NCBI GenBank assembly: GCA_038205015.1
Contig: JBBRCK010000002.1
Location: 33,913 to 97,912 of the forward strand
Length of the DNA: 64,000 bases
From: Candidatus Levyibacteriota bacterium
GTDB lineage: Bacteria; Patescibacteriota; Microgenomatia; Levybacterales; UBA12049
Reading direction: 5' to 3'
Shown here: one piece after another, positions 3,051-26,524 of the stretch
How positions within the stretch are numbered: the first letter of the stretch is position 1
Layout of the letters: each line of letters begins with the position of its first letter
Program-made: the position numbers and the translations under genes
The notes under the pieces: model-generated
Seen by the model: only the letters and a program-made list of their open reading frames with translations
What the model was told of the DNA's origin: nothing
Database searches by the model: none

Positions 3051-5642
3051 ATGGTTAAGGTAAGAGCAACATTAATTTGCACAATATTTAACGAAGAAAA
3101 AAACATTGAAAGCTTCATAAAATCTATTGCAAAGCAAACAGTTATTCCAAACGAAATTATTATTGTGGATGGCGGAAGTAAAGATAATACAGATGTTGTA
3201 CTTAAGAGATTAATAGAAAAATATGCCAACAAACTTAAGATAATATTTTTACAAAAGATGGGAAATAGGTCTATTGGCAGAAATGAGGCAATCAAAAATT
3301 CTTCTAACGAAATAATTCTTTGTACCGATTCGGGAAATTTATTGGATAAAAACTGGGTAAAAGAAATTACCAGACCCTTTTCTAATAAAAGGGTAGAAGT
3401 TGTAGCAGGATACTATAAAGGGATTGGAAAGACAGCGTTTGAAAAATGCATGATTCCTTATGCTCTCGTAATGAAAGAAAGGATAAATAAGAATAATTTT
3501 TTACCTGCAACAAGGTCTATGGCATTTAAAAAAAATATTTGGAAAAAGGTAGGTGAATTCAATGAAAAATTTTCTCACAATGAAGATTATGATTTTGCAA
3601 ACAAACTTAAAAGTAGGAATGCAAAAATTGTATTTACAGACAAAGCGATTGTAAGTTGGTTTCCTAGAAGAAATTTAAAGCAGGCATTTGTTATGTTTTT
3701 TAGGTTTGCTTTTGGTGACGGAGAATCAGGGAATTTGCGAGAAAAGGTGTTATATATATTCTTAAGATATTTTTTGTTATTTTATTTGCTTTTTCTTGAT
3801 TATTTATACAAATCTAAAATTTTATCGATAATTATTAGTTTAGGAGTTGTAGCTTATCTGTCTTGGTCTATTGCAAAAAATACTAAGTATATAAATGACT
3901 CAAAAAAATATTTTTTACTTCCTCTAATTCAATTGACATCTGATATTGCAGTAATGGTTGGTACGAGTTTGGGGGTTATAAAGCGTGTTATTAATTTAGA
4001 TTTTAAAGCTGTGTTTTTACATAATAAGGGGTTATTTTTTATCTTAATTGTTTATATATTAACAGTTTTGTCTTCAATTACGTGGGGTATTCCAAATCAG
4101 AATCACCCATTTTTATACCATATGGATGAATGGCATCAGCTTCAATCTGTAAGGTTTGTTTTTCAATATGGAAGTCCAAATTTTCAAGCATCTGCGAACG
4201 GACCTATGTTTCATTTCTTTCTCTCAGGAATTTATCTTTCCCCCTTTGTTTTACTAAAAATTGTAAATCCTTTCACAATAAAATCTGCTATAGATGCGAT
4301 AAACATGCAACATTTAATATTTATTATTCTTCGTTTGAATACCTTATTGTTTGGTGTACTAACTTTACTTACTATTTATAAGACTTCAAAGATTTTAAAA
4401 ATTAAATCAATGCTTCCAATTGTATTACTTGCATTTACTCCGGTTTGGATAATGTTAAGCAATAATTTTAAGTATGATATTGCACTTACGTTTTGGCTGA
4501 CATTTTCAATATATTGTTTTTTAAGATACTTTAAAAACCCTATAATTCATAATTTAGTTTTACTTTGTATCGTATCTGCATTGACTCTATCAGTTAAGGT
4601 TACGGGAATTCCACTTATTGGATTAATTATTGTAAGTTTCTTTTTATTTTCCAATAATCCTTTTAATAGGATAAAAGATTTAGTTATTGGATTAATTTCC
4701 TATTTTTTGATTGTAATTTTCTTTGGAATTCCGGATATTATATTTAATGGAAAAAGTATTTATGAATATTTATATTCAAATTTAACTTTAACAGCTAATT
4801 TGTCAAATTATGTTAAAACTGGATACTCCACTTTTTCTTTTATAATGTTACATAATTTTCCTACAATTTTTGGCCATCCATTATTTTTATTGTTTTGCTT
4901 ATCGCTTATCTACTTCTTAAAATTAATACGTGAAAGCGTAATTAATAAAGAAAAGATTTATAAATTTTATTTAATTATATTGTTGTACTTTATTATTTTT
5001 ATTTTTAGTTTTTATCCGATTATTAATTTGGGACCATCAGCAAACAGAGTTTTAGTTATATTACCCGCAATGGTGTTAATAATAGCTATCTCAGTAAGCG
5101 AATTTATTAAAAACTTGAGTGGTAACAAGAAAATATTAGTGATTTTTATACTATTTATTTGTATTTTTTTACAAATTTTTGAAACTTATTGTTGGGTTTT
5201 ATTAAAACATACTCCTGCTCCTCAAGAAACATCTTCTTCCTGGGTTTTAAAAAATATAAAACCATATACTACAATAGGTTTAGAAAATATACCTTTATAT
5301 CAAAAAGAACCTGACATTGTTCTAAAAGAATTTTATAATAAGCAGTATAAAACGAATTTGAAATTAAAATATAATTATCAAATTGTAGATTACAATACCA
5401 AAAATCTTCCGGAAGTAATAATTGTATCGGACGTGAAATTATCAGAGGAGTCTGAGAGAAATACCTCGAAAATTAATCTTATAAATAAATTAAATAAGGA
5501 AAATTATAAAATTATTACTACCTTTTCGCCAGCTTTAAATTTTTATTATTTTTTTGGTAATACATTTAATTTTGTTTCATCTGGTCTTATAGCATATCCG
5601 GGAGATATTACAATTTTTAAGAAAAATAACATGCAGAATTAA
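3051..5642 (+). CDS. Fusion protein: N-terminal GT2 glycosyltransferase (polyprenyl-phosphate sugar synthase-like) joined to a C-terminal PMT/ArnT-like GT-C membrane glycosyltransferase.
   Basis: 863 aa. N-terminus LICTIFNEEKNIESFI...IIIVDGGSKDNT...CTDSGN is GT2-like. About 14 TM segments follow, carrying a DE loop motif (YHMDEWH), with a C-terminal soluble domain. Confidence 0.6.
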   Translation: MVKVRATLICTIFNEEKNIESFIKSIAKQTVIPNEIIIVDGGSKDNTDVVLKRLIEKYANKLKIIFLQKMGNRSIGRNEAIKNSSNEIILCTDSGNLLDKNWVKEITRPFSNKRVEVVAGYYKGIGKTAFEKCMIPYALVMKERINKNNFLPATRSMAFKKNIWKKVGEFNEKFSHNEDYDFANKLKSRNAKIVFTDKAIVSWFPRRNLKQAFVMFFRFAFGDGESGNLREKVLYIFLRYFLLFYLLFLDYLYKSKILSIIISLGVVAYLSWSIAKNTKYINDSKKYFLLPLIQLTSDIAVMVGTSLGVIKRVINLDFKAVFLHNKGLFFILIVYILTVLSSITWGIPNQNHPFLYHMDEWHQLQSVRFVFQYGSPNFQASANGPMFHFFLSGIYLSPFVLLKIVNPFTIKSAIDAINMQHLIFIILRLNTLLFGVLTLLTIYKTSKILKIKSMLPIVLLAFTPVWIMLSNNFKYDIALTFWLTFSIYCFLRYFKNPIIHNLVLLCIVSALTLSVKVTGIPLIGLIIVSFFLFSNNPFNRIKDLVIGLISYFLIVIFFGIPDIIFNGKSIYEYLYSNLTLTANLSNYVKTGYSTFSFIMLHNFPTIFGHPLFLLFCLSLIYFLKLIRESVINKEKIYKFYLIILLYFIIFIFSFYPIINLGPSANRVLVILPAMVLIIAISVSEFIKNLSGNKKILVIFILFICIFLQIFETYCWVLLKHTPAPQETSSSWVLKNIKPYTTIGLENIPLYQKEPDIVLKEFYNKQYKTNLKLKYNYQIVDYNTKNLPEVIIVSDVKLSEESERNTSKINLINKLNKENYKIITTFSPALNFYYFFGNTFNFVSSGLIAYPGDITIFKKNNMQN

Positions 5643-7101: not shown

Positions 7102-7338
7102 ATGAAGAAAATAATTTTTTATACGACTATTTTGTATTTAATCTTTTTGATTATTTTTAGATTTTCTTTTAGATATTTTAGAACTTTTTTTCTTCCTCCG
7201 GAAATTTCAGGATTTAAAATAGTCGGTTATTCTCAGTACTTTGGGTATCCATTCTATTATGATACTGTAGTATTTTTTCTTTTAGTTTTAGTTCCAAGTT
7301 TAATATTTTTAATCTTTATGCTGCACCATAAGAAATGA
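7102..7338 (+). CDS. Small 2-TM membrane protein, hypothetical.
   Basis: 78 aa with two hydrophobic helices. Translationally coupled to the flanking genes. Confidence 0.3.
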   Translation: MKKIIFYTTILYLIFLIIFRFSFRYFRTFFLPPEISGFKIVGYSQYFGYPFYYDTVVFFLLVLVPSLIFLIFMLHHKK

Positions 7339-10085: not shown

Positions 10086-11330
10086 ATGGGCTACTCAAAA
10101 AATTTTATAATTGGCATTTCATGGGTATCAATTCTTCGCATATCTGTAAAGCTGCTATCCTTAATAAAGATTATCGTTTTAGCAAGAATTTTATCTCAAT
10201 CTCAATTTGGAGCATTTTCTATCGCATTTATAGTTTATGGATTTTCGACAATTATCACCGAAACGGGCGTAAATACAGTATTAGTTCAGAATAATGAATC
10301 ATTAAGTAAATATATCAATACCGCATGGGTAATTACAATTACAAGGGGATTTGTAGTATTTATTTGTACACTTTTGTCTGCACCCTTAATTTCTCATTTT
10401 TTTAACATCCGTGAAGTTTATAGTTTGATAATTCTAATCAGTCTTGTGCCATTAATACAAGGGTTTATCAATCCAGCTGAAATATTATTTCAAAAAAACA
10501 TGTTATTCAAGAAAGAATTATCTTTTAGAATTATTATTAATATTCTGGAGGTAATTTTTACAATTATGTTTGTATATATTACAAAGAACGCAACAGGATT
10601 GGCATATGGATTAATCCTTGGTGCATTAATTGAAGTTTTTTTATCAATGTTCTATCTTAGTCCAAAGCCAAAATTTATCTTTAATAAAAAACATGCACGA
10701 ATGATAATACATAAAGGTAAATGGATTACATATGCTGGAATATTTAGTTATTTATATCAAAATATAGACAATCTAATTGTAGGTAAGTTCCTTGGAGCTT
10801 CGTCGTTGGGATTATACGACTTAATTTATAAAGTATCTATGATTCCGTTAAATGAAATAACAGATGTATTTGGAAGGGTAAGTTTTCCAATTTATATTAA
10901 AATTTCAAATGATGCAAGTAGACTTAAAAAAGCATTTTTAAAGTCCACAGTATTAATAATAATTATTATTTTTCCCGTATCTTTGGTTTGTTTTTTCTTT
11001 CCAAAAGAAGTACTCACTTTATTATTAGGAGAAAAATGGCAGGCTGGAAGTCAAATATTTCAAATTTTTGCTGGTTTTGGGATAATTAGAGCATTATCTA
11101 ATTCAACATCAGCATTTTTTATGGGTTTGGGAAAACAAAAATACGCAGCGATATTATCATTTATAAGTTTATTTACACTTTTAGTGATAATATTTATTGC
11201 AATTAACAATTATGGATTAGTAGGAGTGGCAGTATCTGTAATTACCTCGTCATTCATTGTTTTATTGTTATCATTATTTTTTGTTAGCAAAACACTATCC
11301 GGATTAAAGCTAAATAATGAAAAAATATAA
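10086..11330 (+). CDS. Polysaccharide/oligosaccharide flippase of the MOP (Wzx-like) family.
   Basis: 414 aa with about 12 TM helices. Typical polysaccharide-biosynthesis-protein architecture. Confidence 0.6.
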   Translation: MGYSKNFIIGISWVSILRISVKLLSLIKIIVLARILSQSQFGAFSIAFIVYGFSTIITETGVNTVLVQNNESLSKYINTAWVITITRGFVVFICTLLSAPLISHFFNIREVYSLIILISLVPLIQGFINPAEILFQKNMLFKKELSFRIIINILEVIFTIMFVYITKNATGLAYGLILGALIEVFLSMFYLSPKPKFIFNKKHARMIIHKGKWITYAGIFSYLYQNIDNLIVGKFLGASSLGLYDLIYKVSMIPLNEITDVFGRVSFPIYIKISNDASRLKKAFLKSTVLIIIIIFPVSLVCFFFPKEVLTLLLGEKWQAGSQIFQIFAGFGIIRALSNSTSAFFMGLGKQKYAAILSFISLFTLLVIIFIAINNYGLVGVAVSVITSSFIVLLLSLFFVSKTLSGLKLNNEKI

Positions 11331-13581: not shown

Positions 13582-14685
13582 ATGAAAATTGCTTTTTTTC
13601 ATGAATTACATGCAGGGGGAGCAAGAAGAGCCTCAAATGAATTTGCAAAACAGCTTAGAAAAAACCATACAGTAGATTTATACATCACTGATGAAGGTCT
13701 TAATTCTAAAGAAAAAAATTTTTATGATAGAATTTTCTTCTTCAAATTTCTGCCTATAAAATGGAATGGTAATGATTGGAGGGGTAAGCTTTATAAAGAT
13801 ACTTATGAGCTGTATAAACTTTACAAATTACATAAAAATATAGCTAAAGTTATAGATAAAAAAAAATACGACATTGTTTTTGTTCAGCCATCAAAATTAA
13901 CTCAGGCACCTTTTATTCTCAGGTTTTTAAAAAGTAAAAATATGTATTATTGTCAGGAAAGCTTAAGAATAGTATACGATAAATCATTCAGAATTAATAA
14001 ACAACTGCCAAAATATAAATACATTTATGAAAGTGTAAATAGATTTATAAGAAAAATAATTGATAAAAAAAATATAAAATCGGCAAATCAAGTATTGGTG
14101 AATTCAAATTTTACAAAAAGAAATATATTTAGTGCATATAACATTTCCTCAAAAGTTTGTTATATGGGAGTAGATACAAATATATTTAAGCCCTCTAAAA
14201 TTAAAAAAACGAATGACATTTTATATATTGGAGCATATGCCTATTCAGACGGATATACTGACTTGAAAAAAATATTATCAAAAAATACTCAAAAATATAA
14301 AGTATTAATTTTAGCCCAAGAAAGAAAATGGATAGATAACGATTTATTGCTTAGAAGTCTCTACAGTCAATCAAAAATTGCATTAGCATTGTCTCATAAT
14401 GAACCTTTCGGTTTAATACCACTTGAGGCTATGGCTTGTGGTGTGCCTATAATAGCAATTAATGAGGGAGGATATAAAGAGTCAGTAGTAAATGGTAAAA
14501 CAGGTTTCTTGGTTTCAAGAAATACAGTCCTTTTACAAAAAAAAATTAATTATCTGCTTAAGAATAAAAAAATTTTAGAAAAATTTAGTTATGAATCAAG
14601 GAGTCATATTTTACAAAATTGGACGTGGGAAAAGAATACTAGAATACTTGAGAAAATTATTATAAAAAGAGTGTTAGAAGATTAG
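13582..14685 (+). CDS. Glycosyltransferase family 4 (GT-B fold).
   Basis: 367 aa. EPFGLIPLEAMACGVPIIAINEGGYKESVVNGKTGFLV is the Glycos_transf_1 signature. Confidence 0.65.
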   Translation: MKIAFFHELHAGGARRASNEFAKQLRKNHTVDLYITDEGLNSKEKNFYDRIFFFKFLPIKWNGNDWRGKLYKDTYELYKLYKLHKNIAKVIDKKKYDIVFVQPSKLTQAPFILRFLKSKNMYYCQESLRIVYDKSFRINKQLPKYKYIYESVNRFIRKIIDKKNIKSANQVLVNSNFTKRNIFSAYNISSKVCYMGVDTNIFKPSKIKKTNDILYIGAYAYSDGYTDLKKILSKNTQKYKVLILAQERKWIDNDLLLRSLYSQSKIALALSHNEPFGLIPLEAMACGVPIIAINEGGYKESVVNGKTGFLVSRNTVLLQKKINYLLKNKKILEKFSYESRSHILQNWTWEKNTRILEKIIIKRVLED

Positions 14686-14702: not shown

Positions 14703-16874
14703 ATGATTTCAATAATTATTGTTAATTATAAAGTTGAGAAGGAATTATATAAATGCATAGAGTCAATTTATGATTCAAAACAAAACATAAGTTTTGAGAT
14801 AATTGTTGTAGATAACGATAAAACTAGAACTATCGAAAAAAAACTTAAGAAGAGATTTCCTAAGGTAATTTATGTTTTTAGCAAAAAGAACATTGGCTAT
14901 GGTGCAGGAAATAATTTAGGTCAAGAATATGCAAAAGGAGAATATTTATTCTTTTTAAATCCAGATACTTATGTTAAATCATTAAATCTTAAAGAACTTC
15001 TTGACGATTTTAAATTCAAAAATGCAGGCATTATTGCCCCAACACTTATTATTAATGGCAAAGAGTCATTAGAGCAGGGGTCTATTGCGCTTACGCCATT
15101 AGTTGCCATATTTAAATTATCGTTTATAGATAAACTATATCCTAATAATCCTATTTCAAAAGAATTTTGGGTAAAAAATCATAAAAATAAATTAAAACAG
15201 GTAGACGTTGTTCCTGGAACAGCATTGATTATTTCTAAAGAATTATTTTTGAAGATTGGAAAATTTGACGAAAGATTTTTCTTATACTTTGAAGAATATG
15301 ATCTTTGTAGAAGAGTAAGAAAGCTTGGGTATAATATTTTTATAGATTCAGATTCTAAAATCGTTCACGAATGGGGGAAAAGTACGAGTAAGCTTGAAAA
15401 TATAGACAAAATTTTTAACTCAAGTAGATATTTATATTTTAGAAAACATTTCGGATTAATAAAAACGTTACTTGTTGAATTTTTCTTAAGAATTAATAAG
15501 GTTTCTATTTTTATTACTTTCCTTTTAGCAACAGCACTATTTTTGAGGATATACAATCTTTCTATCAGCATGCCTTTTATAGGTGACCAAGGATGGTTCT
15601 ATTTATCCGCTAGAGATATGTTACTAACAGGTAAAATTCCCTTAGTAGGAATTACCTCAAGTCATACATGGCTTCATCAGGGGCCATTGTGGACTTATAT
15701 TTTGTCTGCAGGCTTGTATTTATCCAATTTTAATCCATTTTCTGGTGGTTATATAACAGCTCTCTTTGGGGTTGGAACAGTTTATCTAATGTACAAAATG
15801 GGATCGAATATATTTTCAAGAAGAGTCGGGTTAATATCTGCTTTTTTATATACAACCTCTCCGTTGGTAATAATTTTTGATCGTCAGGCTTTTGATCCAA
15901 GTCTAATGCCATTTTTTACTGTTTTGTACTTTTTTTCATTGGTAAAATTAATAAGAGGAGAAAGGAGATATTTACCTTTGTCGATATTTATTTTAGTTAT
16001 TTTATATAACTTAGAACTTGCCTCATTTACCCTTATTATCCCATTTTTGTTAGTTTTATTTTTTCTATTTAAATTTAAAACAGGATACCTAAAAACATTA
16101 TTTAGTAAAAATTTAATATTACTATCTATTTTTGCATTCTTAATTCCCATGACCCCAATTTTAATATATGATTTCTCAAACGGTTTTAAACAAACTCTAG
16201 TGTTTGCTATATGGATTGGATATAAATTTTTAGGATTATTTTTTTCAAACCATTCCGGAGGGATCAGCTTATTAGATATTTATAGATTTATTACAAACAA
16301 ACTTCAGATTTTAATTTTTGCTGAAAATTATTTGTTTGCTAATTTACTATTTGTATTTTCTATTCTATATTTAATTTTTAATAGTTTAAAGAATAAATCT
16401 AATTTTTTAAATTCTAAATTTATATTATTATTGTTTATTCTTACCACACTTGCCGGAGTTATAGTTAATAAAACACCTTCAGATGCTTATTTACCAATTT
16501 CATTCCCTTTTATTATTTTCGCAATAGCAATCTTATTCGATCATTTATATAACAACAAATATTTAAAGTACTTTTCCATTTTTGTCTTATTTGTCATATT
16601 TACTTATAATTTTAACTTTATATATAAACAATCGTTTGCGCCTGAGATTCAGAAAAGGCAAATAGCAGTGCAAAAGATTATTGCTTTAACAAATGGTAGT
16701 AAATATAATTTATCAGGTAAAGGAATGAATAGTCAGTTCGAAAGTTTTACGATGAATTATGAATATCTATTGTGGTGGAAAGGTCATCAACCAAGCAAGG
16801 TGCCGCAGAAAATGCAAATTGTTATAAGCGAAGAATCAGGTGGCATAATGATTGATAAATATGAAACAAAATAA
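14703..16874 (+). CDS. Fusion protein: N-terminal GT2 (rhamnosyl/glycosyl transferase-like) joined to a C-terminal GT-C-like polytopic membrane domain.
   Basis: 723 aa. N-terminus ISIIIVNYK...IIVVDNDK...NIGYGAGNN...FFLNPDT is GT2. From about aa 255 there are roughly 12 TM helices with the loop motif GDQGWFYLSARDM. Confidence 0.6.
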   Translation: MISIIIVNYKVEKELYKCIESIYDSKQNISFEIIVVDNDKTRTIEKKLKKRFPKVIYVFSKKNIGYGAGNNLGQEYAKGEYLFFLNPDTYVKSLNLKELLDDFKFKNAGIIAPTLIINGKESLEQGSIALTPLVAIFKLSFIDKLYPNNPISKEFWVKNHKNKLKQVDVVPGTALIISKELFLKIGKFDERFFLYFEEYDLCRRVRKLGYNIFIDSDSKIVHEWGKSTSKLENIDKIFNSSRYLYFRKHFGLIKTLLVEFFLRINKVSIFITFLLATALFLRIYNLSISMPFIGDQGWFYLSARDMLLTGKIPLVGITSSHTWLHQGPLWTYILSAGLYLSNFNPFSGGYITALFGVGTVYLMYKMGSNIFSRRVGLISAFLYTTSPLVIIFDRQAFDPSLMPFFTVLYFFSLVKLIRGERRYLPLSIFILVILYNLELASFTLIIPFLLVLFFLFKFKTGYLKTLFSKNLILLSIFAFLIPMTPILIYDFSNGFKQTLVFAIWIGYKFLGLFFSNHSGGISLLDIYRFITNKLQILIFAENYLFANLLFVFSILYLIFNSLKNKSNFLNSKFILLLFILTTLAGVIVNKTPSDAYLPISFPFIIFAIAILFDHLYNNKYLKYFSIFVLFVIFTYNFNFIYKQSFAPEIQKRQIAVQKIIALTNGSKYNLSGKGMNSQFESFTMNYEYLLWWKGHQPSKVPQKMQIVISEESGGIMIDKYETK

Positions 16875-17601
16875 GCATAATATTTTAGGCAATGACTTTG
16901 TTGTAGTTTTTCCCTCATTTATTGAAGTTGAGAATGTCTCTATTTTGGTAAAAAGAATTAGAGCAGCTTTGCCAAAATCGAAAATAATTATCGTTGATGA
17001 TTCACCAAGGAAAGAAAATGAAGTAATCAAACGCAGCGTTAAACAATTTACAAATATACAGTTTATTTCAAGACTAAAAAAGCTAGGAAGAGGGAGCGCA
17101 ATAATTGAAGGTCTTAAGCTTGGTTTGAAAGATAAGACAAATAAATATTTCTTCGAAATGGATTCGGATCTTGCTCAGAATCCCAAGGAATTTATTAGGT
17201 TTATAAAAAAAATGAATGAAGAAAACGTAGACTTGGTAGTTGGATCACGTTATATTCGAGGCGGTAGAACAATTGGCGTTACTAAATCTAGGATAATATT
17301 AAGTAGGATTATAAATAAATTTCTATATCTATTATTGGGAGTTAAGCTTACAGACTATACTGATGGTTTTAGATTATACAACCGAAGATCAGTAGAACTC
17401 ATAGCCAAAGAGGATATAAAATCTACGGGATTTATTACTTTAACTGAGACAGTTTATAAATTAAACAGGAAAGGTATTAAAATGGCTGAGGTGCCGGTTA
17501 CAATTTATAGCAGAAGATACGGTATCTCTACTCGTGATTTTAATGAATTATTCCAATCTTTGCTATTTGTTCTTAAAATGAGGTTTGAATATTCTAGCTA
17601 G
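16852..17601 (+). CDS. GT2 polyprenyl-phosphate sugar synthase (DPM1/GtrB/CsbB-like), paralog of 9280-10038.
   Basis: 249 aa. Motifs IVDDSP, KKLGRGSAIIEGL, EMDSDLAQNP and GSRYIRGG. Its start overlaps the 3' end of the upstream fusion gene by 23 nt. Confidence 0.75.
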   Translation: MINMKQNKHNILGNDFVVVFPSFIEVENVSILVKRIRAALPKSKIIIVDDSPRKENEVIKRSVKQFTNIQFISRLKKLGRGSAIIEGLKLGLKDKTNKYFFEMDSDLAQNPKEFIRFIKKMNEENVDLVVGSRYIRGGRTIGVTKSRIILSRIINKFLYLLLGVKLTDYTDGFRLYNRRSVELIAKEDIKSTGFITLTETVYKLNRKGIKMAEVPVTIYSRRYGISTRDFNELFQSLLFVLKMRFEYSS

Positions 17602-17602
17602 G

Positions 17603-18847
17603 TTACCTAATATAGGGTGTTGGTATCGGAATTATAAATTTCCCCCCGTTCTTTATAAACTCTTTTTCTTTTTGAATTATTTTTTCTGCGTAATTCCAAA
17701 CAAGTAACAGATAATAATCAGGCTTTTCTCCTCTTTTTATTTCCTCTTCTTGAGAAATAACCTCAATATGCTTTCCCGGACTATATAAACCGTATTTGTA
17801 AGGTGTTTTGTCAACAATATAATCAAGATAGTTAGTTCCGATATTGCAATAATTAAGTAAGGTATTTGATTTGGCAGATGCACCGTACCCAGCTATTTTT
17901 TTATTTTGGCTTTTAAGATCTTTTAACAGTTGGACAAGTTTTATTTTAATATAATTAACTCTAGCTTGAAATCCAAGATAAGTATTTATATTTGTTATAC
18001 CCATATGAATTTCATTTTCAATTGCATTTAAAAGTCTATTTTCAATTTTTTGTTTACCTTTATGAGCGACAAATAATCTTATAGAGCCGCCTTGAGTATT
18101 ATGTTCCTCCACGTCAAATGCTTCCAAATCAAATTGTTCTAACAGTTTAAGCAGGGGATAAAGTGAAAAAAAAGATTGGTGCTCATGATAAATGTTATCG
18201 AATTGATTATTAAATAATAGATACGGAAAATATTGACACTCAAAGATAAAAACACCATTTTCGTCAAGTAAATACTTAATTCCGGATATAAAATCATATA
18301 AATCATTAACATGAGCAATAACGTTATTTGCAATAATTATTCCTGCTTTGCCGGCATTTGTTACCACATCATTGGCAGACCGTTTATTAAAAAAATCGTT
18401 AATTGTCGGTATGCCATTAGCATTAGCCGCATCGGTAACATTTTTTGCAGGATCAATCCCTAAGGCCTTATAGCCTTTAGTGATAAATGGTTTTAGCAGT
18501 GTGCCATCATTACTGGCTACCTCGACAACAAATTGTTTAGATTGTTTTGGAAACCTCTGCATAACAGCCTCCGCGTATGCCTCAAAATATCCAATTGATG
18601 CAGGAGATCCTCCAGTATAGAATGCATAATCTTGCCCGAACAAAAGCTTAGGATTTACTTCATCAACGAGTTGAACTAAAAAACATTTTGGACAAACTTT
18701 TACATCTAAAGGAAATTTGTGTTCCTTGTCTTTTACGTTTTTAACAAATAAATCTGCGAGAGGAGTTTTATCAAGGGTTATAAAATTAAATAGTTTTTTA
18801 TGTTTGCAAATCCTGCAAGTGGTTCTAATACTTACTAAACTATTCAT
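17603..18847 (-). CDS. NDP-hexose C-methyltransferase (TylCIII-like) with an N-terminal zinc-ribbon, a class I SAM MTase domain and a C-methyltransferase C-terminal domain.
   Basis: 414 aa. N-terminal CRIC...CPKC zinc finger, then SAM-binding VVEVASNDGTLL. The C-terminal domain matches the sugar C-methyltransferase family. It is the only minus-strand gene inside the plus-strand cluster. Confidence 0.65.
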   Translation of the reverse strand: MNSLVSIRTTCRICKHKKLFNFITLDKTPLADLFVKNVKDKEHKFPLDVKVCPKCFLVQLVDEVNPKLLFGQDYAFYTGGSPASIGYFEAYAEAVMQRFPKQSKQFVVEVASNDGTLLKPFITKGYKALGIDPAKNVTDAANANGIPTINDFFNKRSANDVVTNAGKAGIIIANNVIAHVNDLYDFISGIKYLLDENGVFIFECQYFPYLLFNNQFDNIYHEHQSFFSLYPLLKLLEQFDLEAFDVEEHNTQGGSIRLFVAHKGKQKIENRLLNAIENEIHMGITNINTYLGFQARVNYIKIKLVQLLKDLKSQNKKIAGYGASAKSNTLLNYCNIGTNYLDYIVDKTPYKYGLYSPGKHIEVISQEEEIKRGEKPDYYLLLVWNYAEKIIQKEKEFIKNGGKFIIPIPTPYIR

Positions 18848-18931
18848 ACGTTCTGGCAGGTAGGTTATTATAAATTATACACAAGGTTATTATCAATAGC
18901 AGGGTTTATTTGTTTATAAAATATTTTAAAG

Positions 18932-18937
18932 TATAAT
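18932..18937 (+). promoter_or_regulatory. -10 box TATAAT, 7 nt upstream of start codon 18945 (leaderless-type).
   Basis: Sequence aagTATAATattacccATG. Confidence 0.3.
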
Positions 18938-18944
18938 ATTACCC

Positions 18945-20528
18945 ATGAATAAAAAGAAAAAAATTCTTGCCGCATTATTTGTATTCGTGTTTGCTTTTTT
19001 ATTGCGCTTATGGAACTTAAATTCAATGGGAAGGACTTGGGACGAGACTGCATATGTTGAGGTTGGAAATAAAATGATCCAGTTAATTTTGAATAAAAAC
19101 ATATTTAATAGTTATTTTTATCATTTTACAGATGCTCCACCACTGGCAAGATATTTATTTGGAATTGCAAGTAATTTAGATATTAAAAGTATAATTGGCG
19201 GTATTCCTGTCTTTAATTATGAATATACTTATGCACGGTTAATATCGATAATATTTTCTTCTTTCTCATCAGTAATTGTTCTATTTATTGGGATTGAGTT
19301 TATTTCCGTCTTTGTAGGAATAGCGGCAGCAATTATTTTGGCAATGCTTCCGTTTTTTCTTGGATTATCACAGTTAGCCACTTTAGAAAGTACTTTATTT
19401 TTCTTTTTTACACTCTCTGTTTATTTATACCTGAGATTTTTGAGAAAGCCATCGAAATTAAATGTATTTTTAACTGGTTTTGCAATTGGTTTAGCGATTT
19501 TATCAAAGTATACGAATGTGTTATTAATTCCTGTAATTTTAGGAATATATTTCTTTTGGAATAAAGAAATAAAAGATAAATTATCCAAGATAATTTTAAA
19601 ACAAACACTATATATGTTTGTGATTGCAATCCTTACATTTATTATTGCTTGGCCAATGCCATGGGCAAATTTAAGTTATGTAATTGGTTTTAACTATAAC
19701 TGGAGGGTGATGGGAAATTTGCAGCCTGACATTGAAGTTTTTTATGGAAGATTAATGCATCTTCCTGTATTTTATTATCCCGTAATGTTTTTAATAACAA
19801 CCCCGTTAATAATCGTATTATTATTTTTTATCGGTTCCAAATTTATTTCGGATTATACCAGTAAAAAGGAAATTGCTAAGAAAGCTAAAGAGAGTGGATT
19901 TGTTAGTTCAAAATGGTTTTTGTATTCACTTCTTGCATGGTTTTGCATTCCATTTATTCAATCATTTTATAATTATCGCCATCATGGAATCAGATTTATT
20001 ATAGAAATTTACGCACCTTTATCAATAATTGCTGCAATCGGATTAAATTGTATATCATCAAAGTTTTCCAAAACCTTGATGGCTCGTATATTGTTTTTAT
20101 TTGTAGTAATTATATATTTAGCTATATCTCTTATTAAACTTACTCCCTATTATTTAGATTATTATAATGGTTTGGTTGGGGGAACAAATGGCGTTTATAA
20201 AAACAGACTTTTTGAAATTGGTTGGTGGGGACAAGGGCTTGGAGAAGCAGGTTATTATTTACAAAATTACGCAAAACCTAATTCTAAAATAGGACTATTT
20301 ATTTCTCCAACAAGTGTGTTCCCGCCAATTAAAAATCAAAAGATAATGTTAATAGATCCGGTTAGGGGAGTATATGATTCAAAAATTAAATACGATTATG
20401 TTGTTGTAAATTACTTTCATGTCTTAAGAGAAAGATTCGATGACAGTAAAATTAAAGGGGACTACAAACTAATACATACAGTTAGCGCTGACGGCGCGGT
20501 TTTAGTTTATATATACCAAAAAATTTAG
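18945..20528 (+). CDS. PMT/ArnT-like (GT39/GT83-type) polyprenyl-phosphate-sugar-dependent membrane glycosyltransferase.
   Basis: 527 aa. The first loop carries the DE motif (GRTWDETAYVEVG) typical of the PMT_2/ArnT family, followed by about 11 TM helices. Confidence 0.6.
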   Translation: MNKKKKILAALFVFVFAFLLRLWNLNSMGRTWDETAYVEVGNKMIQLILNKNIFNSYFYHFTDAPPLARYLFGIASNLDIKSIIGGIPVFNYEYTYARLISIIFSSFSSVIVLFIGIEFISVFVGIAAAIILAMLPFFLGLSQLATLESTLFFFFTLSVYLYLRFLRKPSKLNVFLTGFAIGLAILSKYTNVLLIPVILGIYFFWNKEIKDKLSKIILKQTLYMFVIAILTFIIAWPMPWANLSYVIGFNYNWRVMGNLQPDIEVFYGRLMHLPVFYYPVMFLITTPLIIVLLFFIGSKFISDYTSKKEIAKKAKESGFVSSKWFLYSLLAWFCIPFIQSFYNYRHHGIRFIIEIYAPLSIIAAIGLNCISSKFSKTLMARILFLFVVIIYLAISLIKLTPYYLDYYNGLVGGTNGVYKNRLFEIGWWGQGLGEAGYYLQNYAKPNSKIGLFISPTSVFPPIKNQKIMLIDPVRGVYDSKIKYDYVVVNYFHVLRERFDDSKIKGDYKLIHTVSADGAVLVYIYQKI

Positions 20529-22863
20529 GTTTTAAGTTAATAAATATAAGAAATAAAACTATCGCTAATGTTAACCCAGTAATAAATATTCCAAGATTAT
20601 AGTTTGATGGCTCAAATTCAAATATTATTTTATGCTCTCCTTTTGTTAAATAGATTGATCTAAAAATATAATCACCTTTTAATACTTTAATTAAAGTACC
20701 ATTATCATATGCTTTCCAACCCGGATACCAAATTTCACTTAAAACCAAGTATCCCGCTTTAGTAATAGAAGTATTTATAATTATTTTATTTGCGGAATAT
20801 TTATTTATATCTAAATACTGCTGTATGTCTGATTTATTGATAGTTAAAAACTTTAATTTATTTATATCTGTTAAATTCGGTACAGCCAGATTGTCCTTAG
20901 AAATTGAAAACTTACCGCTTTTAATTAAATCTTCCGAAATAATATATGCTCTGGGAAAATATGATAGATTTTCATATAAATAAAAATTAACAGTTTTATT
21001 GCCTATATTATCTTTATAAGAATGTAAAAGCTTGAAGTTTGTATTATCAATTGTTTTTTCCCAAATTAAATATTTTGTATTTAGTAGGTCTAATATTTTA
21101 GGATTAATAATTGATTGAATTTGTATAAATGATTCAAAAGGAGCATCTGAGTGTTTGCCAATAAGCCAAAGAAAATTCCGGTAATTGTTAAGATACACTC
21201 CTTCATATCCTGTGAGAATTTGTAATCCATTTATCATTGCGATAGTGCTGTAGGTACCAGACATTGCGAAAACTCTATAAGTAGAATTATCCTTTTTTAT
21301 ATCTTTGATTACTTGGGGAGTTTTGAATAATTCATTTGGACTTCCTGTTTCAATTACCTTATAGCTAAATAGCCAAAGCTGAATAAAAATTAATGATAGA
21401 ATAAATAGTTTGAATATATTTGGTTTTATTCGTCTTGTTAAATATAAATATATACTTATAAATATTATTGATGAAAAGGTTAAAAGTGAAAAAATATCAA
21501 AAAGTGTTTGCCTAAAGATTGTTAAATGATTTATATCTACGGCATAAGAGTTTTTAAGAATGTATTTTTCGTATAATTGTAAAAGATTTTGTGAATAAAT
21601 AAATATAACTGGTATTAACGTTATTAAAGAAATAGTAAATAAATATTTGGAAATTAATATTAATTTGTTAATAAATTTAGTGGTTGACTTTAAATTTAAA
21701 AAATAATTTATTCCAAATCCAGAAAGAATGGCAATGCTAAAGGAATAGATATATAAAAATCTTGATGGGGCTCTAAATAAGGCAATCCCCGGAATATAAT
21801 GAAATAAAATTGAATATATTGGTGTAAATTTTCCAAAAGCGAATAATAGTGAAATGAGTGTAGATAACAAGAAGATAAATACATATCTATTTCGTTTAAA
21901 CACAATTGCTATTAAAGCAAAAATTAAGGGTACTAGTCCGAGATACCCATTCATTTCCCAAAGATTTCCTATTCCCCAGAAAGTTTGATTAAATGGAGAG
22001 CCAAAAAAATAAGGAAGTATAAAAGAAATCATTTGATAAGGTTTTAAAGAAAACGCAGAAGCAAATTCAAAAGAAATTCCACCGGCTCTTTCAGAAAGAT
22101 TTGTTAGTTCTAGAGAGGGAACTAGCTGTATTGCAGATAGAGCAACTCCAATCAGGAAAGATAATAAAAATAAGAAAATAAGTTTTAAAATATATAATAC
22201 ATTTTTGTTTTCTTTATAATCAAAAAAAAGTCTGATAAAAAAATATGTACACGAAAATAACAAATTATAAAAAGTAAATTGAGAATGGCCAACTAGTATT
22301 GTTAAGGCAATCGTTATTCCTGCTAAAAGCCCAAAAATATATTTCTTTGTTTTTAATAAAGATTCATAAAAATATAACAAAAGTGGTAACCAAACTATGG
22401 CATCCAAAATATATAAATGTCCTGGATAAATTCTGAAAACAACTGGTCCACTAAACATAAATATTACTGCAGAAATAAACGCGCTAAAACTACCCAAATT
22501 TAATTTTTTGGCAAATAAATATGTAAAAAGACCAATTAAAAAAATATCAATAATAAATAAATACCCAAAAACATATCCTACGGGAATGATTAGGAATAGT
22601 AGATATAGAGGATAAAAAACTCCGGAGGAAGGATTTGCTAAAAACGGTGTTCCAGAGAACATCGCAGGTTCCCAAAAGGGAATTTGGTGGTATTGATTAA
22701 AAAAGATTGAAAAAAAATATTTGGGATAATAGGCAGAGCCTAAAATATCTGAAGCTGAAATAATTTGTGAAGGATTAGTAATTAGTTTGTTGAAAAAAAG
22801 TAAAGTTAACAGAAACAGCGATAGTGGATACCTATATTTAAAAAAAGTCTTAAGTAAATTCAT
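20482..22863 (-). CDS. YfhO-family polytopic membrane protein (GT-C-type glycosyltransferase).
   Basis: 793 aa with many TM helices. N-terminal loop NQYHQIPFWEPAMFSGTPFLANP matches the YfhO-type motif. Overlaps the convergent gene 18945-20528 by 47 bp. Confidence 0.5.
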   Translation of the reverse strand: MNLLKTFFKYRYPLSLFLLTLLFFNKLITNPSQIISASDILGSAYYPKYFFSIFFNQYHQIPFWEPAMFSGTPFLANPSSGVFYPLYLLFLIIPVGYVFGYLFIIDIFLIGLFTYLFAKKLNLGSFSAFISAVIFMFSGPVVFRIYPGHLYILDAIVWLPLLLYFYESLLKTKKYIFGLLAGITIALTILVGHSQFTFYNLLFSCTYFFIRLFFDYKENKNVLYILKLIFLFLLSFLIGVALSAIQLVPSLELTNLSERAGGISFEFASAFSLKPYQMISFILPYFFGSPFNQTFWGIGNLWEMNGYLGLVPLIFALIAIVFKRNRYVFIFLLSTLISLLFAFGKFTPIYSILFHYIPGIALFRAPSRFLYIYSFSIAILSGFGINYFLNLKSTTKFINKLILISKYLFTISLITLIPVIFIYSQNLLQLYEKYILKNSYAVDINHLTIFRQTLFDIFSLLTFSSIIFISIYLYLTRRIKPNIFKLFILSLIFIQLWLFSYKVIETGSPNELFKTPQVIKDIKKDNSTYRVFAMSGTYSTIAMINGLQILTGYEGVYLNNYRNFLWLIGKHSDAPFESFIQIQSIINPKILDLLNTKYLIWEKTIDNTNFKLLHSYKDNIGNKTVNFYLYENLSYFPRAYIISEDLIKSGKFSISKDNLAVPNLTDINKLKFLTINKSDIQQYLDINKYSANKIIINTSITKAGYLVLSEIWYPGWKAYDNGTLIKVLKGDYIFRSIYLTKGEHKIIFEFEPSNYNLGIFITGLTLAIVLFLIFINLKPKFFGIYKLKPRRQR

Positions 22864-22918: not shown

Positions 22919-23689
22919 TTGGTTATGCTTTCCGTTGTAATACTCACAAAAAATGAAGAAAAAAATATAATTGATTGTTTGGAGAGTGTTTCTTGGGCCG
23001 ATGAAATATTGTTAATAGATGATTATTCAACAGACAGAACAATTGAGGTTACCAAGAATTTTGATTTAAATAAAAAGGTCACCATAATTAAAAAAAGGCT
23101 TGATAATGATTTTTCTTCTCAAAGAAACTTTGGTATCTTAAAAGCAAAGTATGATTGGATATTATTTGTAGATGCTGACGAAAGAGTAACAAAAGAGCTT
23201 AGGGAAGAAATACATTTGGTTTTAATTAGCGAAAAAACAAATCCTGCTTTTTATGGATTTTATTTATCAAGAAAGGACGTTATGTGGGGTAAAATGATTA
23301 AACATGGAGAAATGGGTAGTATAAGACTTTTAAGATTAATAAAAAAGGGAAGTGGTAAATGGAAAGGAAAAGTACATGAGCAGTTTATCGCAGAAAAAAG
23401 AGTTGAAGAATTAGAAAACGGACTATTGCATTTTCCACATCAATCAATCAGTGATTTTTTAACCGAAATTAATTTTTATACGAGTATAAGATCTAAAGAA
23501 TTGTTTAACTTAGGAGTACAGACTAATATTTTACAAATCATATTTTATCCAATGGCTAAATTTATTATGAATTATTTAGTAAAACAGGGAATTAGAGACG
23601 GTACTGAAGGTTTAATCTTGGCAATTATAATGAGTTTTCACTCCTTTTTAGTAAGAGGAAAGCTATGGATATTATGGCAAAAAAAATAA
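22919..23689 (+). CDS. Glycosyltransferase family 2 (LPS-core/KdtX-like).
   Basis: 256 aa. Motifs LSVVILTKNEEKNI and LIDDYSTDRT are GT2. The track start is TTG at 22919. The biological start is more likely ATG 22925, giving MLSVVIL. Confidence 0.7.
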   Translation: MVMLSVVILTKNEEKNIIDCLESVSWADEILLIDDYSTDRTIEVTKNFDLNKKVTIIKKRLDNDFSSQRNFGILKAKYDWILFVDADERVTKELREEIHLVLISEKTNPAFYGFYLSRKDVMWGKMIKHGEMGSIRLLRLIKKGSGKWKGKVHEQFIAEKRVEELENGLLHFPHQSISDFLTEINFYTSIRSKELFNLGVQTNILQIIFYPMAKFIMNYLVKQGIRDGTEGLILAIIMSFHSFLVRGKLWILWQKK

Positions 23690-23765: not shown

Positions 23766-25343
23766 GTGTTTGCATTTGCTTTTTTAACTGGTATATATTC
23801 ATACATTATTTTTTTTCTAGGAATATTTGGACAGCTATATAGAAATTATGTGCTAGTTTCTTCTGTAATTTATGTATTATTAGTATTGATATTATTTAAA
23901 AATTATCCAAAGGTATTAGCAATTAAACTCTATAAAAAAACATCCATTGTTAAGGAAGCTTTAAAAAATAGATTGTCATTAGTTTTAATAATTCTATTAA
24001 CAGTTCAAATTTTGATCAATTTTATAGGAGTCTTGGGACCTGAAGTATCCTTTGATGCGCTTTGGTATCATCTTACTTTACCAAAGCTGTATATTCTAAA
24101 TCATTCAATTTTTCATATTTCCGGTGGTCTTTTATATTATTCAGATATGCCAAAGTTAGTAGAAATGCTTTATGTACCATTTCTAATGTTTGGAAATGAA
24201 ATTGGCGCAAAATTTCTGCACTTTGTTTTCGGAATACTAGTTTTGTTTATATTATATATAATTTCTATTAGGTTTTTGTCTAAAAATTTATCATTATTAG
24301 TTTTGATTCTGTTTTATTCAAATTTAGTTGTAGGTTGGGAATCTATTACAGCTTATGTAGACTTAGCAAGAACATTTTTTGAACTACTTTCATTTTATGG
24401 ATTTATTATCTGGTTTAAAAATAGGAATAGTAAGTATTTATTTTATTCTGCGATTATTTTAGGTTTTGCAATAACAGTAAAATTAGTAGTTATATTTGAT
24501 TTACTAATTTTCTTATGTCTATTTGTATATTTAAAGAAAGACATTTTTAAAAACATAATTCAGTTTAGTGGCATTTCTTTGTTAATTCCTTTACCTTGGT
24601 TTATATTCTCATATTTAAATACCGGCAACTTATTTTATCCATATTTTAGTTTACCTGTTGATTCCGGACATTTTCTTAACATGCCAACGTTGTCCTCGCT
24701 TATAAATTTCTCAGATCCAATTTCGCCAATTTATTTAATTTTACTTCCTATTATTTTATTAAGTTATAAACAATTTGATAAGAATACAAAGTTGATTTTT
24801 ATTATGTTTATTACTGGAATTTTAATATGGTTTTTGACTCAAACCGGGAGAGGAACAAGATTTTTGCTTCCCTATCTTCCATTAGCATCAATTTTGTGTA
24901 TTCTCATTATTCAATCATTTAAAAGTATAATTATAAAAAAATATTTGTATGTATTAATTATTATTATTTCATTAACTTCAATTGGGTACAGATTAATTGC
25001 GAATATTAAGTTTTTACCCGTTGTAATCGGAAAAGAATCGAGAGAGTATTTTCTTACTAATCATTTAAATTTTTCTTTTGGAGATTTTTATGATGTAGAT
25101 GGATATTTTAAAAATAACATTCAAAAATCCGATAAAGTACTTTTATATGGATTTCATAATTTATATTATGTAAATTTTCCATACATTGATTCAAGCTGGG
25201 TTAAAAAAGGAGATAAGTTTAATTATATTGCAGTTCAAAATGCAAATATTCCGGATAGATTTTTAGATTGGAAAAAAGTTTATTACAATAATCAAACAAG
25301 AGTTGGACTATACTCAAAGGAAGCAATAATATGGGAATACTAG
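23766..25343 (+). CDS. Polytopic membrane protein, GT-C-like.
   Basis: 525 aa with about 13 TM helices. GTG start preceded by SD aaaggagga at 23752-23760. Confidence 0.4.
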   Translation: MFAFAFLTGIYSYIIFFLGIFGQLYRNYVLVSSVIYVLLVLILFKNYPKVLAIKLYKKTSIVKEALKNRLSLVLIILLTVQILINFIGVLGPEVSFDALWYHLTLPKLYILNHSIFHISGGLLYYSDMPKLVEMLYVPFLMFGNEIGAKFLHFVFGILVLFILYIISIRFLSKNLSLLVLILFYSNLVVGWESITAYVDLARTFFELLSFYGFIIWFKNRNSKYLFYSAIILGFAITVKLVVIFDLLIFLCLFVYLKKDIFKNIIQFSGISLLIPLPWFIFSYLNTGNLFYPYFSLPVDSGHFLNMPTLSSLINFSDPISPIYLILLPIILLSYKQFDKNTKLIFIMFITGILIWFLTQTGRGTRFLLPYLPLASILCILIIQSFKSIIIKKYLYVLIIIISLTSIGYRLIANIKFLPVVIGKESREYFLTNHLNFSFGDFYDVDGYFKNNIQKSDKVLLYGFHNLYYVNFPYIDSSWVKKGDKFNYIAVQNANIPDRFLDWKKVYYNNQTRVGLYSKEAIIWEY

Positions 25344-26524
25344 AAAAATTATTTATTTTATTTATATTTACCTTTCCCACCGGCGTAATTGCCAGGCTTC
25401 AATTTTCAAATGGACTTGCAATCTCTATAAATGATTTAATATTAATGATTTTAATTCTCTTTTGGGTATTTTATAGAATAAAACTCAAATCTTTTGAAGG
25501 CAAATATTATTTATCAAAACCGATTGGAATATTTATTTTTCTGGGATTATTTTCTTTAATATTAAATTTTCCAAATCTTGGATTTGATAAATTCTTAATA
25601 TCATTTACTTACCTTGCAAGGTTTATTGGATACGCATTGTTATATTTTATAGTAAAAGATTTTACAAACTCTTTTAAAATTAAGATTAACAAATATTTAT
25701 TAATTTCTGGATTAATAGTACTGATATTAGGTTATATTCAATATTTTTTTTACCCGAGTCTTAAGAGCTTATCATTTTTAGGTTGGGATATTCATCTATA
25801 TAGAATGGTTTCGGTATTTCTTGATCCAAATTTTGCTGGAACATTTTTTAATATTTATTTAATTTTTTCCTTAGAGTTTTTCCGAAAAAGATATAAAAAA
25901 TTATCAAAGGTTAAAATATCGCTTTTTTTATTAATCCCAATATTTACACTTTTTTCAATATATTTGACATATTCAAGAAGCGCACTAATTATGTTATTTA
26001 TTTGTACGGCTACGTATTTAATCCTACTTAATAAAAAGAAATTAATAATAATTTCTACAATTGTTCTTTTTCTGTTAATTTTTATTTCACCTAGGGCTTT
26101 TCAAACAGAAGGTACTAATTTATTAAGAATAGTTTCAACTACTGAAAGAATACAATCTGTCCAAATAGTAACTAAAGTAATTTCAGCAAATCCGTTATTC
26201 GGAGTAGGTTTTAATGCTTATAGGTATGCTCAGAATAAGTTAGGATTAGACAACGTTTATTGGCAAGTTACTCATGCCGGAGCAGGAACTGACGCAAGTC
26301 TCTTGTTCGTAATTGCAACAACCGGTTTTATAGGTTTACTAGCTTTTCTTTATTTAATCTATAAATTATTATATCTCGCAAAGTTAAATCTAAATAAAAA
26401 CGGAATTATACTGTTTTCAGTATTGGTTGGCTTGTTGGCTAACAGTTTATTTATAAACAGTTTTTTCTTTGTTTTTATATTAGAGTGGATTTGGATACTC
26501 TCCGGCGTTACTGAGAATAGTTAA
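25331..26524 (+). CDS. O-antigen ligase/polymerase family (Wzy_C) membrane protein, possibly an O-oligosaccharyltransferase.
   Basis: 397 aa with about 10-12 TM helices. A periplasmic loop carries YSRSALIML and HAGAGTDAS, resembling the Wzy_C/WaaL/PglL family. Confidence 0.5.
   Translation: MGILEKLFILFIFTFPTGVIARLQFSNGLAISINDLILMILILFWVFYRIKLKSFEGKYYLSKPIGIFIFLGLFSLILNFPNLGFDKFLISFTYLARFIGYALLYFIVKDFTNSFKIKINKYLLISGLIVLILGYIQYFFYPSLKSLSFLGWDIHLYRMVSVFLDPNFAGTFFNIYLIFSLEFFRKRYKKLSKVKISLFLLIPIFTLFSIYLTYSRSALIMLFICTATYLILLNKKKLIIISTIVLFLLIFISPRAFQTEGTNLLRIVSTTERIQSVQIVTKVISANPLFGVGFNAYRYAQNKLGLDNVYWQVTHAGAGTDASLLFVIATTGFIGLLAFLYLIYKLLYLAKLNLNKNGIILFSVLVGLLANSLFINSFFFVFILEWIWILSGVTENS

Follow-up and report, generated by a model that had tools for sequence, protein, structure and literature searches.

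A conserved GT2::GT-C fusion protein in a surface-glycan locus of Candidatus Levyibacteriota and the loose association of its modules

We analysed a stretch of 64,000 nucleotides (the window) from contig JBBRCK010000002.1 of a Candidatus Levyibacteriota bacterium (positions 33,913 to 97,912, forward strand). Its open reading frame (ORF) 14703-16874, hereafter F2, joins a cytoplasmic GT2 glycosyltransferase domain to a polytopic GT-C glycosyltransferase domain. According to sequence comparisons and structure models, F2 represents a real, conserved and uncharacterised family of predicted bifunctional enzymes of Microgenomatia-type Patescibacteria. The families of both domains are well known, and the architecture is already recognised by automated annotation; what is new here is the looseness and modularity of the fusion, and the most informative feature is the natural series of module states found in relatives. 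No description of a natural GT2::GT-C fusion was found in the literature searched, an absence which is no proof that none exists.

The F2 family and its two catalytic domains

F2 starts at the first ATG past the upstream stop and encodes 723 amino acids (aa) plus a stop codon. It is laid out as a GT2 domain of the GT-A fold (aa 1 to ~255), a 13-helix ArnT/PMT-like GT-C domain and a small outer C-terminal domain. The initial annotation had described this ORF as a GT2::GT-C fusion and quoted four of its motifs. The translation, Pfam and at least 120 full-length homologs bear this out, the motifs being located at aa 4-10 (IIIVNYK), 35-40 (VVDNDK), 63-71 (NIGYGAGNN) and 294-306 (the first outer-loop motif listed below). 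By our own arithmetic, the chance of a 723-codon open frame is ~1e-27 in DNA of 27% GC, with ~8% stops per random codon. The parts of F2 are as follows (TM, transmembrane; TM1, first TM helix):

14703..16874, + strand: F2, complete GT2::GT-C fusion ORF (Pfam, homologs, AlphaFold model with pLDDT 88.7 and pTM 0.84)
14703..15467, + strand: cytoplasmic GT-A/GT2 catalytic domain, aa 1-255 (Pfam, family alignment, Foldseek, PDB profile matches)
15402..15488, + strand: conserved linker of two helices from the GT2 core to TM1, aa 234-262 (sequence, family alignment, model)
15498..16631, + strand: GT-C membrane domain, aa 266-643, predicted 13 TM helices and two juxtamembrane helices (PMT_2, model, Foldseek, topology reasoning)
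15582..15620, + strand: first outer-loop motif GDQGWFYLSARDM, aa 294-306, whose invariant D295 is the putative catalytic Asp (alignments)
16632..16871, + strand: small, predicted extracytoplasmic C-terminal alpha/beta domain, aa 644-723, with MNYEYLLWWKG (alignment, models)

Homologs of F2 were searched among 5.8 billion proteins, and 778 of the 8000 candidates scored matched at E ≤ 1e-5. The best 120 have lengths of 670-746 aa, in nearly all cases 717-746, and are 46-55% identical to the query over 92-100% of it; all carry GT2 plus PMT_2 annotations. Those that are named belong to “Patescibacteria group” or “Candidatus Levybacteria”. NCBI labels them “glycosyltransferase”, and JGI [quoted passage not shown]. 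When one genome of each GTDB species was scanned, 548 relatives were found, with full-length matches in metagenome-assembled genomes (MAGs) of Levybacteria/Levyibacteriota, Microgenomates, Woesebacteria and Gottesmanbacteria. The at least 120 full-length homologs all apparently come from Microgenomatia-type Patescibacteria.

The junction between the two halves (aa 230-266) is conserved in the family alignment and folds, in the AlphaFold model, as two helices running into TM1; inspection of the sequence revealed no internal Met or start codon at this place. An artefact of assembly or gene calling is ruled out by the at least 120 full-length homologs, which come from many samples and assemblers and share the same architecture and the conserved junction. 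These homologs are the deciding evidence that the fusion is genuine.

In the GT2 half, Pfam detects Glycos_transf_2 (PF00535) at aa 3-125 (E 1.4e-19, 71.1 bits for a cut-off of 23.3) and Glyco_tranf_2_2 (PF10111) at aa 9-208 (35.7 bits for a cut-off of 27.3). Residue conservation was determined on a family alignment of 59 homologs. N86-P87-D88, E197-E198-x-D200 and H222 are invariant in this half and D37 nearly so; the equivalent of the DxD motif is the NPD variant formed by residues 86 to 88. The top 50 Foldseek matches of the whole F2 model are all GT-A enzymes. Those of the GT2 half include GalNAc-Ts, TarP, TarS, RmlT and WrtF, with a probability of 1.00, and profile searches of the PDB lead to K4CP, TarP, TarS, RmlT and GalNAc-Ts.

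This domain had been called rhamnosyltransferase/WbbL-like. TIGR01556 is indeed the best NCBIfam match of F2, but with 49.5 bits for a cut-off of 200.55 it does not establish a rhamnosyltransferase. With the soluble lipid-acceptor GT2s of the WbbL/GlfT1/HpsN type, F2 shares the size, the NPD-type metal motif, the E-E-x-D motif and the C-terminal His; models of this type are its best NCBIfam matches, all weak and far below the curated cut-offs. RmlC and RmlD are encoded in the window, and Rml genes lie within 10 kb of F2 in few relatives only. We therefore dropped a rhamnose link via the Rml genes, which are not consistently near the F2 homologs.

In the GT-C half, Pfam detects PMT_2 (PF13231) at aa 326-489 (36.6 bits for a cut-off of 26.1). 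This half was also modelled alone, since the whole model had given only GT-A matches in its top 50. The resulting AlphaFold model (pLDDT 91.6, pTM 0.92) has as its top 34 Foldseek matches exclusively GT-C-type polytopic membrane enzymes. The best TM-scores are those of ArnT (5ezm, 0.63/0.56) and ALG12 (0.59/0.58), and the lowest E-values those of STT3/AglB/PglB; ALG9, Pmt1/2, AftB, Emb, AftA and PimE also match. No solved GT-C, ArnT included, was reached from F2 by sequence or profile searches of the PDB with E up to 10.

The helices of the AlphaFold model, combined with the positive-inside rule, suggest a topology of 13 TM helices in which the first outer loop carries two juxtamembrane helices and the last 80 residues form an outer C-terminal domain. 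The polytopic GT-C initially proposed is thus retained; its count of about 12 TM helices is not. Across the 59 homologs the invariant residues of the GT-C half are D295, located 11 residues past TM1, H321, H325, N436, E438, D490 and Q497, and the outer domain adds Y686, Y688 and W691. Under the proposed topology all invariant polar residues of the GT-C half would lie on the outer face, R304/D305, R394 and the three residues of the outer domain being counted among them. D295 is the putative catalytic residue. Because the catalytic-type residues are invariant, and those of the GT-C half lie on the predicted outer face, both halves look catalytically competent, one on each side of the membrane.

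With ArnT (GT83) and PMT (GT39), F2 has in common the 13-TM GT-C fold, the juxtamembrane helices, the Asp in the first outer loop and an outer C-terminal domain. It differs from them by the extra N-terminal GT2, by the lack of a sequence-level match to a solved GT-C, and by the absence in Pfam searches of PF02366 (PMT) and of a MIR domain. Lipid A is an implausible acceptor for F2.

Independent origin and modularity of the fusion

A second fusion, F1, and the other genes of the locus were used for comparison:

3051..5642, + strand: F1, GT2 plus two TM helices plus GT-C, 863 aa
9280..10038, + strand: PpgS-like GT2, a paralog 52% identical to the 16861 protein
10086..11330, + strand: Wzx-type flippase, conserved (Pfam, synteny)
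13582..14685, + strand: GT4 glycosyltransferase, conserved upstream neighbour of F2 (Pfam, synteny)
16861..17601, + strand: TM-less GT2 of the polyprenyl-phosphate sugar synthase type (PpgS/DPMS/ArnC-like), candidate maker of the GT-C donor
22919..23689, + strand: stand-alone GT2, 256 aa, with orthologs directly after F2, often overlapping it, in nearly all relatives
23766..25343, + strand: stand-alone PMT_2-like GT-C, 525 aa
25331..26524, + strand: Wzy_C membrane protein (O-antigen ligase/polymerase/PglL-type), conserved end of the locus (synteny)
26508-27218, - strand: membrane-anchored protein of 236 aa with a Glucodextran_B/Ig-like domain

F1 carries the Pfam domains Glycos_transf_2, Glyco_tranf_2_3 and PMT_2. 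Its family is conserved (407 matches, the best 120 of 763-883 aa and nearly all of 836-883). By BLASTP the GT2 halves of F1 and F2 are 22% identical (E 7e-6) and the GT-C halves align with an E-value of 0.087. The GT2 domains were compared with stand-alone GT2s by neighbour-joining (NJ) on an alignment of 84 sequences, with 200 bootstraps. In this alignment the GT2 of F2 is ~20% identical to the F1 family and 30% (up to 37%) identical to 37 stand-alone GT2s of Planctomycetota, Flavobacterium, Deefgea, Myxococcota, Pelagibacteraceae and others. The split that unites the F2-type GT2s with these 37 proteins of other phyla was found in 200/200 bootstraps; the F1 clade was also found in 200/200, a group of F1 and F2 in 0/200. 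The GT2 of F1 joins the 22919-type stand-alone GT2 in 160/200 bootstraps, and a PpgS-like clade stands apart in 200/200.

Comparison of the GT-C profiles by hhalign gave a score of 65.5 between F2 and F1, versus 75.1 and 74.5 between F2 and the two stand-alone GT-Cs of the locus (18945 and 23766 respectively), and 112.2 and 94.6 between F1 and the same two. By these profile scores neither fused GT-C has the other as its nearest relative; the stand-alone GT-Cs of the locus are nearer to both. Nor are the junctions alike, since GT2 and GT-C are separated in F1 by two additional TM helices (aa 233-275). A recent duplication of F1 is ruled out as the origin of F2 by BLASTP, by the GT2 tree and by the GT-C profiles. 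The two GT2s belong to different subfamilies, as had been proposed from the sequence, and the two fusions have independent origins. Neither the recent duplication nor the assembly artefact that would have undermined the initial annotation was found. The further proposal that the fused architecture arose at least twice agrees with the tree, the profile scores and the differing junctions; it also agrees with two proteins of relatives, L043 and P0372, described below. Since these two give further combinations, the sequences indicate that fusion arose more than twice.

For F1, the GT2 matches PgaC/IcaA-, TarS- and TarP-type enzymes and not donor synthases of the DPMS/ArnC type. The GT2 plus two-TM part of F1 also exists as a stand-alone protein of ~315-347 aa in seven loci (L028, L036, L038, L044, L046, L047 and L049), from which it follows that the fusion state of F1 varies too.

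The locus is strongly syntenic across relatives. The order is an F1-type gene, (PpgS-like GT2, C-methyltransferase), Wzx, GT4, F2, 22919-type GT2, PMT2-like GT-C, Wzy_C, the divergent Ig-domain protein and the ATP synthase operon. The slot between the upstream glycosyltransferase gene, usually GT4, and the 22919-type GT2 is found in four alternative states. It is occupied by the fusion in ~26 species-level loci, by adjacent but split GT2 and GT-C ORFs in two (L032, L046), by a GT-C alone of ~470 aa in seven (L028, L031, L034, L038, L039, L041, L042), and by a GT2 alone of ~260-300 aa in six or more (L036, L040, L044, L047-L049). The halves of F2 are separable, since the same slot holds fused, split, GT-C-only or GT2-only versions. 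A search with the GT-C half among 1.84 billion cluster representatives (E ≤ 1e-30) gave 213 clusters; the best 150 comprise 76 complete stand-alone GT-Cs and 55 fused to an F2-type GT2.

Modules are also exchanged. P0372 (878 aa) is a GT4 of GT-B fold, ortholog of 13582-14685 (49% identity), fused to an F2-type GT-C. In a Candidatus Paceibacterota MAG (JABGTR010000010.1; L043:9974-12484), an 837-aa protein joins an F2-type GT2 (41%) to an F1-type GT-C (35%), the latter corresponding to F1 residues 331-863 without the two extra TM helices of F1. In five other loci (L024, L027, L029, L030, L037) a conserved F2-type GT2 (37-56%) accompanies a far more divergent GT-C (26-34%). P0250 (1092 aa) consists of a GT2, an F2-type GT-C and a second, partial F2-type GT-C; it could be a tandem duplication or a misassembly.

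Mapped by parsimony, the fusion state changes 39 times on the GT-C tree, versus 41.9 for shuffled labels, and 13 times on the tree of a neighbouring gene, versus 13.1. The NJ trees being poorly resolved at this divergence, these figures measure a lack of clustering and do not count events; we only claim that, on these sequences, the fused and unfused forms do not appear as two old separate lineages. The GT2-only loci are devoid of any GT-C module of the locus, the 23766-type GT-C included (it is present in most loci with an F2-type GT-C), and keep Wzx and Wzy_C. For this reason the GT-C modules seem to behave as accessories, sometimes fused to whichever cytoplasmic glycosyltransferase gene lies upstream. 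The series of fused, split, single and swapped versions argues for fusion by adjacency rather than for a new mechanism.

Proposed function and alternatives

We consider it somewhat probable that F2 is one polypeptide carrying two separate glycosyltransferases, which act in a Wzx/Wzy_C-type surface-glycan pathway, one on either side of the membrane, and whose functions are separable. The substrates, the order of the steps, the acceptor and the topology are those that we infer for such a pathway. The cytoplasmic GT2 half would use a nucleotide sugar to lengthen a polyprenol-linked glycan, beside the neighbouring GT4 and 22919-type GT2. Wzx would then flip the glycan before the GT-C step. Outside, the GT-C half, through D295, would add a sugar taken from a polyprenyl-phosphate sugar, for which PpgS/DPMS-like GT2s (16861 and 9280, for example) would be the source; the exported glycan or its final carrier would serve as acceptor. 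The fusion could have arisen by read-through, a GT-C gene being placed directly downstream of a cytoplasmic glycosyltransferase gene; the product would be topologically valid because the N-terminus of the GT-C is cytoplasmic.

Cytoplasmic extension by a GT2 on a lipid carrier, followed by a GT-C step outside, is known from the lactococcal polysaccharide pellicle (PSP) pathway and from three- and four-component systems (PMC10821137, PMC9574508). In the latter, a GT2 makes a polyprenyl-phosphate sugar in the cytoplasm, a flippase follows and a polytopic GT-C transfers the sugar outside (PMC9574508). Compared to such systems (GtrA/GtrB/Gtr-type; CsbB/YfhO; CsdAB/CflA; GacI/J/K/L; PpgS/Rv3779), the window likewise has PpgS/DPMS-like GT2s (9280, 16861), Wzx and several GT-Cs, one of them the C-terminal half of F2. 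But their GT-C is a separate protein, whereas that of F2 is fused to a GT2 which is not of the donor-synthase type, and the donor synthase is not a conserved neighbour of F2. The lactococcal PSP (Wps) pathway comprises the primer WpsA/B, cytoplasmic GT2 extension of the WpsC type, the Wzx-type WpsG and the GT-C WpsJ. It shares with our locus GT-A extension of a lipid-linked glycan, Wzx-type export, a GT-C outside and an association with rhamnose genes (RmlC/RmlD in the window). The Wps proteins are separate polypeptides, unlike F2, and the likeness concerns the layout of the pathway without any claim of sequence orthology.

Several observations weigh against the pathway that we propose. Of the loci that carry an F2-type GT-C, only ~7 have a PpgS-like synthase at a distance of 10 kb or less, no small flippase of the GtrA type was found in the window, and the Foldseek E-values are slightly better for oligosaccharyltransferases than for ArnT. 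The fused state is moreover kept across many species at ~50% identity, so that the linkage itself could be under selection.

The E-values for STT3/AglB/PglB would rather suggest that the GT-C half, like lactococcal WpsJ or an oligosaccharyltransferase, moves a whole flipped oligosaccharide en bloc to the cell wall or to a protein, its own GT2 half helping to build the polyprenol-linked oligosaccharide that it transfers. This model gives a rationale for joining builder and transferase; it agrees with the conserved WW-containing motif of the outer domain and has a precedent in the lactococcal GT-C enzymes that transfer C55-P-linked oligosaccharides. We nevertheless regard it as unlikely. The best TM-scores point to ArnT and ALG12, which are monosaccharide transferases, and the outer domain has just 80 aa and no WWDYG motif. 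GT-C-only and GT2-only versions argue against an obligate pairing, and since loci without GT-C keep Wzx and Wzy_C, the basic export/ligation route needs no GT-C. It is improbable that the PMT-like GT-C half performs protein O-glycosylation, modifying secreted or surface proteins (pilins, S-layer, the neighbouring Ig-domain protein) and not a polysaccharide: no evidence identifies an acceptor, PF02366 and MIR are missing, and the alignments to Pmt1/2/4 extend over ~260 columns only with a TM-score of ~0.36. These Pmts are nonetheless among the structural matches, PMT_2 is the family detected in F2, the Wzy_C family includes protein O-oligosaccharyltransferases, and in all relatives examined the membrane-anchored Ig-like protein 26508-27218 adjoins the locus.

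Self-supply, as if GtrB and GtrC were joined, is what a GT2::GT-C fusion intuitively suggests: the GT2 half would make the polyprenyl-phosphate sugar used by the fused GT-C. GT2 enzymes do make such donors, and fusions of partner proteins are known in these systems, e.g. GacJ-GacI. However, the GT2 half has no NCBIfam match of the DPMS/ArnC/PpgS type and no full-length match to DPMS, ArnC, PpgS or AglJ. Its profile reaches DPMS over the first 116 residues only, while neighbours 16861 and 9280 have a full-length match; the 16861 protein, taken as a control, matches both DPMS and ArnC in this way. Together with the separation from the PpgS-like clade in the tree (200/200), this makes a donor synthase unlikely for the GT2 half. 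Its closest relatives are soluble stand-alone GT2s of many phyla; GT-C-only loci lack an F2-type GT2 and GT2-only loci lack any GT-C. Self-supply is thus decidedly improbable. Still less credit is given to a single-chain coupling device, in which the GT-C would receive from its own GT2 domain a lipid-linked intermediate and perhaps help to translocate it. If true, synthesis, membrane passage and outside transfer would be gathered in one chain, a minimal “all-in-one” assembly line for the reduced genomes of the Candidate Phyla Radiation. Finally, many GT2 enzymes need membrane association and the window is of metagenome type, which could make the membrane domain a mere non-catalytic anchor or scaffold for the GT2, or the fusion an artefact of assembly or gene calling. 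This is already largely refuted, and hardly credible, given the invariant outer-face polar residues, the stand-alone orthologs of the GT-C half kept in many genomes and the junction conserved in at least 120 independent full-length homologs.

Mycobacteria offer another case in which a cytoplasmic GT2 is joined to an enzyme domain with several TM helices in one species and separate from it in a relative. Ppm1 (Rv2051c) of Mycobacterium tuberculosis combines a GT2 that synthesises polyprenyl-phosphate mannose with a polytopic enzyme domain in the membrane, and its counterpart in M. smegmatis is split into two interacting proteins. Ppm1 differs from F2 in that its membrane domain is N-terminal and Lnt-like, not a GT-C, and in that its GT2 is a donor synthase.

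Surface glycans probably play a central part in the attachment of the ultra-small, host-dependent Patescibacteria to other cells and in their recognition by these, and to our knowledge no glycan pathway of this group has been characterised so far. In the F2 family an inside (GT-A) and an outside (GT-C) glycosyltransferase are naturally united in one chain, which could make the family a suitable object for structural studies of how steps inside and outside the cytoplasm are arranged. The fused, split, single-domain and swapped versions are ready-made controls for whether physical linkage matters. For glycoengineering it is of use that the N-terminus of a GT-C accepts fusion to more than one cytoplasmic glycosyltransferase fold (GT2, GT4). 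The evidence suggests that the halves are independent; if they are, the lesson is a modest one, i.e. gene fusion by adjacency in a rapidly shuffling polysaccharide locus.

The downstream synthase and other genes of the window

The 3’ end of F2 had been reported to overlap a soluble GtrB-like synthase starting at 16852. An overlap exists, of 14 nucleotides, but judging from the paralog 9280 the start is most likely the ATG at 16861 and not the TTG at 16852. The product (246 aa) has no TM helix, can be aligned along its whole length with DPMS (E 1.7e-13) and ArnC, and has PpgS as its best NCBIfam model. On these grounds it is classed by sequence as a TM-less polyprenyl-phosphate sugar synthase rather than as GtrB proper.

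The position of this gene after F2 is specific to the window. In relatives the ortholog of 22919-23689 abuts the 3’ end of F2, often with a 4-nucleotide overlap; in L001 and L005 the ortholog of the synthase follows F1 instead. The block 16861-22863, placed here between F2 and the 22919 GT2, contains the PpgS-like GT2, a C-methyltransferase (- strand), a PMT-type GT-C (18945-20528) and YfhO (- strand). It has no counterpart at this place in relatives, and in L001 and L005 synthase plus methyltransferase follow F1. Because relatives have the 22919-type GT2 directly after F2, the block looks like a lineage-specific insertion or rearrangement. The overlap between F2 and the synthase, not being conserved in relatives, should not be taken as a conserved functional pairing.

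A single locus of the window combines RmlC/RmlD, Wzx, two GT4s, several GT2s, Wzy_C, YfhO, PMT-type GT-Cs and the two PpgS-like synthases. The GC content is 0.25-0.30 in the glycan locus (window 1-26000) and 0.31-0.38 in the housekeeping remainder (26000-64000); a lower value of this kind is usual in surface-polysaccharide loci that are subject to exchange. The protein 26508-27218, convergent with Wzy_C, stands at the end of the locus in every relative examined and might serve as a target of glycosylation or as a partner associated with the cell wall. ORF 7335-9275, directly before the PpgS-like GT2 9280, encodes 646 aa with ~9-11 hydrophobic segments and no Pfam or NCBIfam match. Its profile similarity is weak (71.5% probability to a divergent F2-type GT-C group, ~30% to YfhO and PMT2-like), and the protein may work with the 9280 synthase as a GT-C that has escaped recognition.

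Outside the locus, 47106-48263 (- strand) encodes a further GT-C, of the GT87 family, surrounded by housekeeping genes, namely those for DNA polymerase III alpha, GatA/GatB, MurT, CTP synthase, UvrB and PPDK. ARAGORN detects at 40475-40560 (+ strand) an 86-nucleotide tRNA-Lys(ttt) inside the mechanical ORF 40074-40730 (- strand), and one of these two calls is spurious. Many MAGs deposited as Third Party Annotation (TPA) under “uncultured Gammaproteobacteria bacterium” (L013, L014, L016-L018, L020, L021 and others) contain this locus of the Patescibacteria type, its genes in the same order. The ATP synthase beta subunit, encoded within the fetched stretch, is 75% identical to that of the window in L014 and 87% in L021; the Gammaproteobacteria labels of these MAGs are probably wrong.

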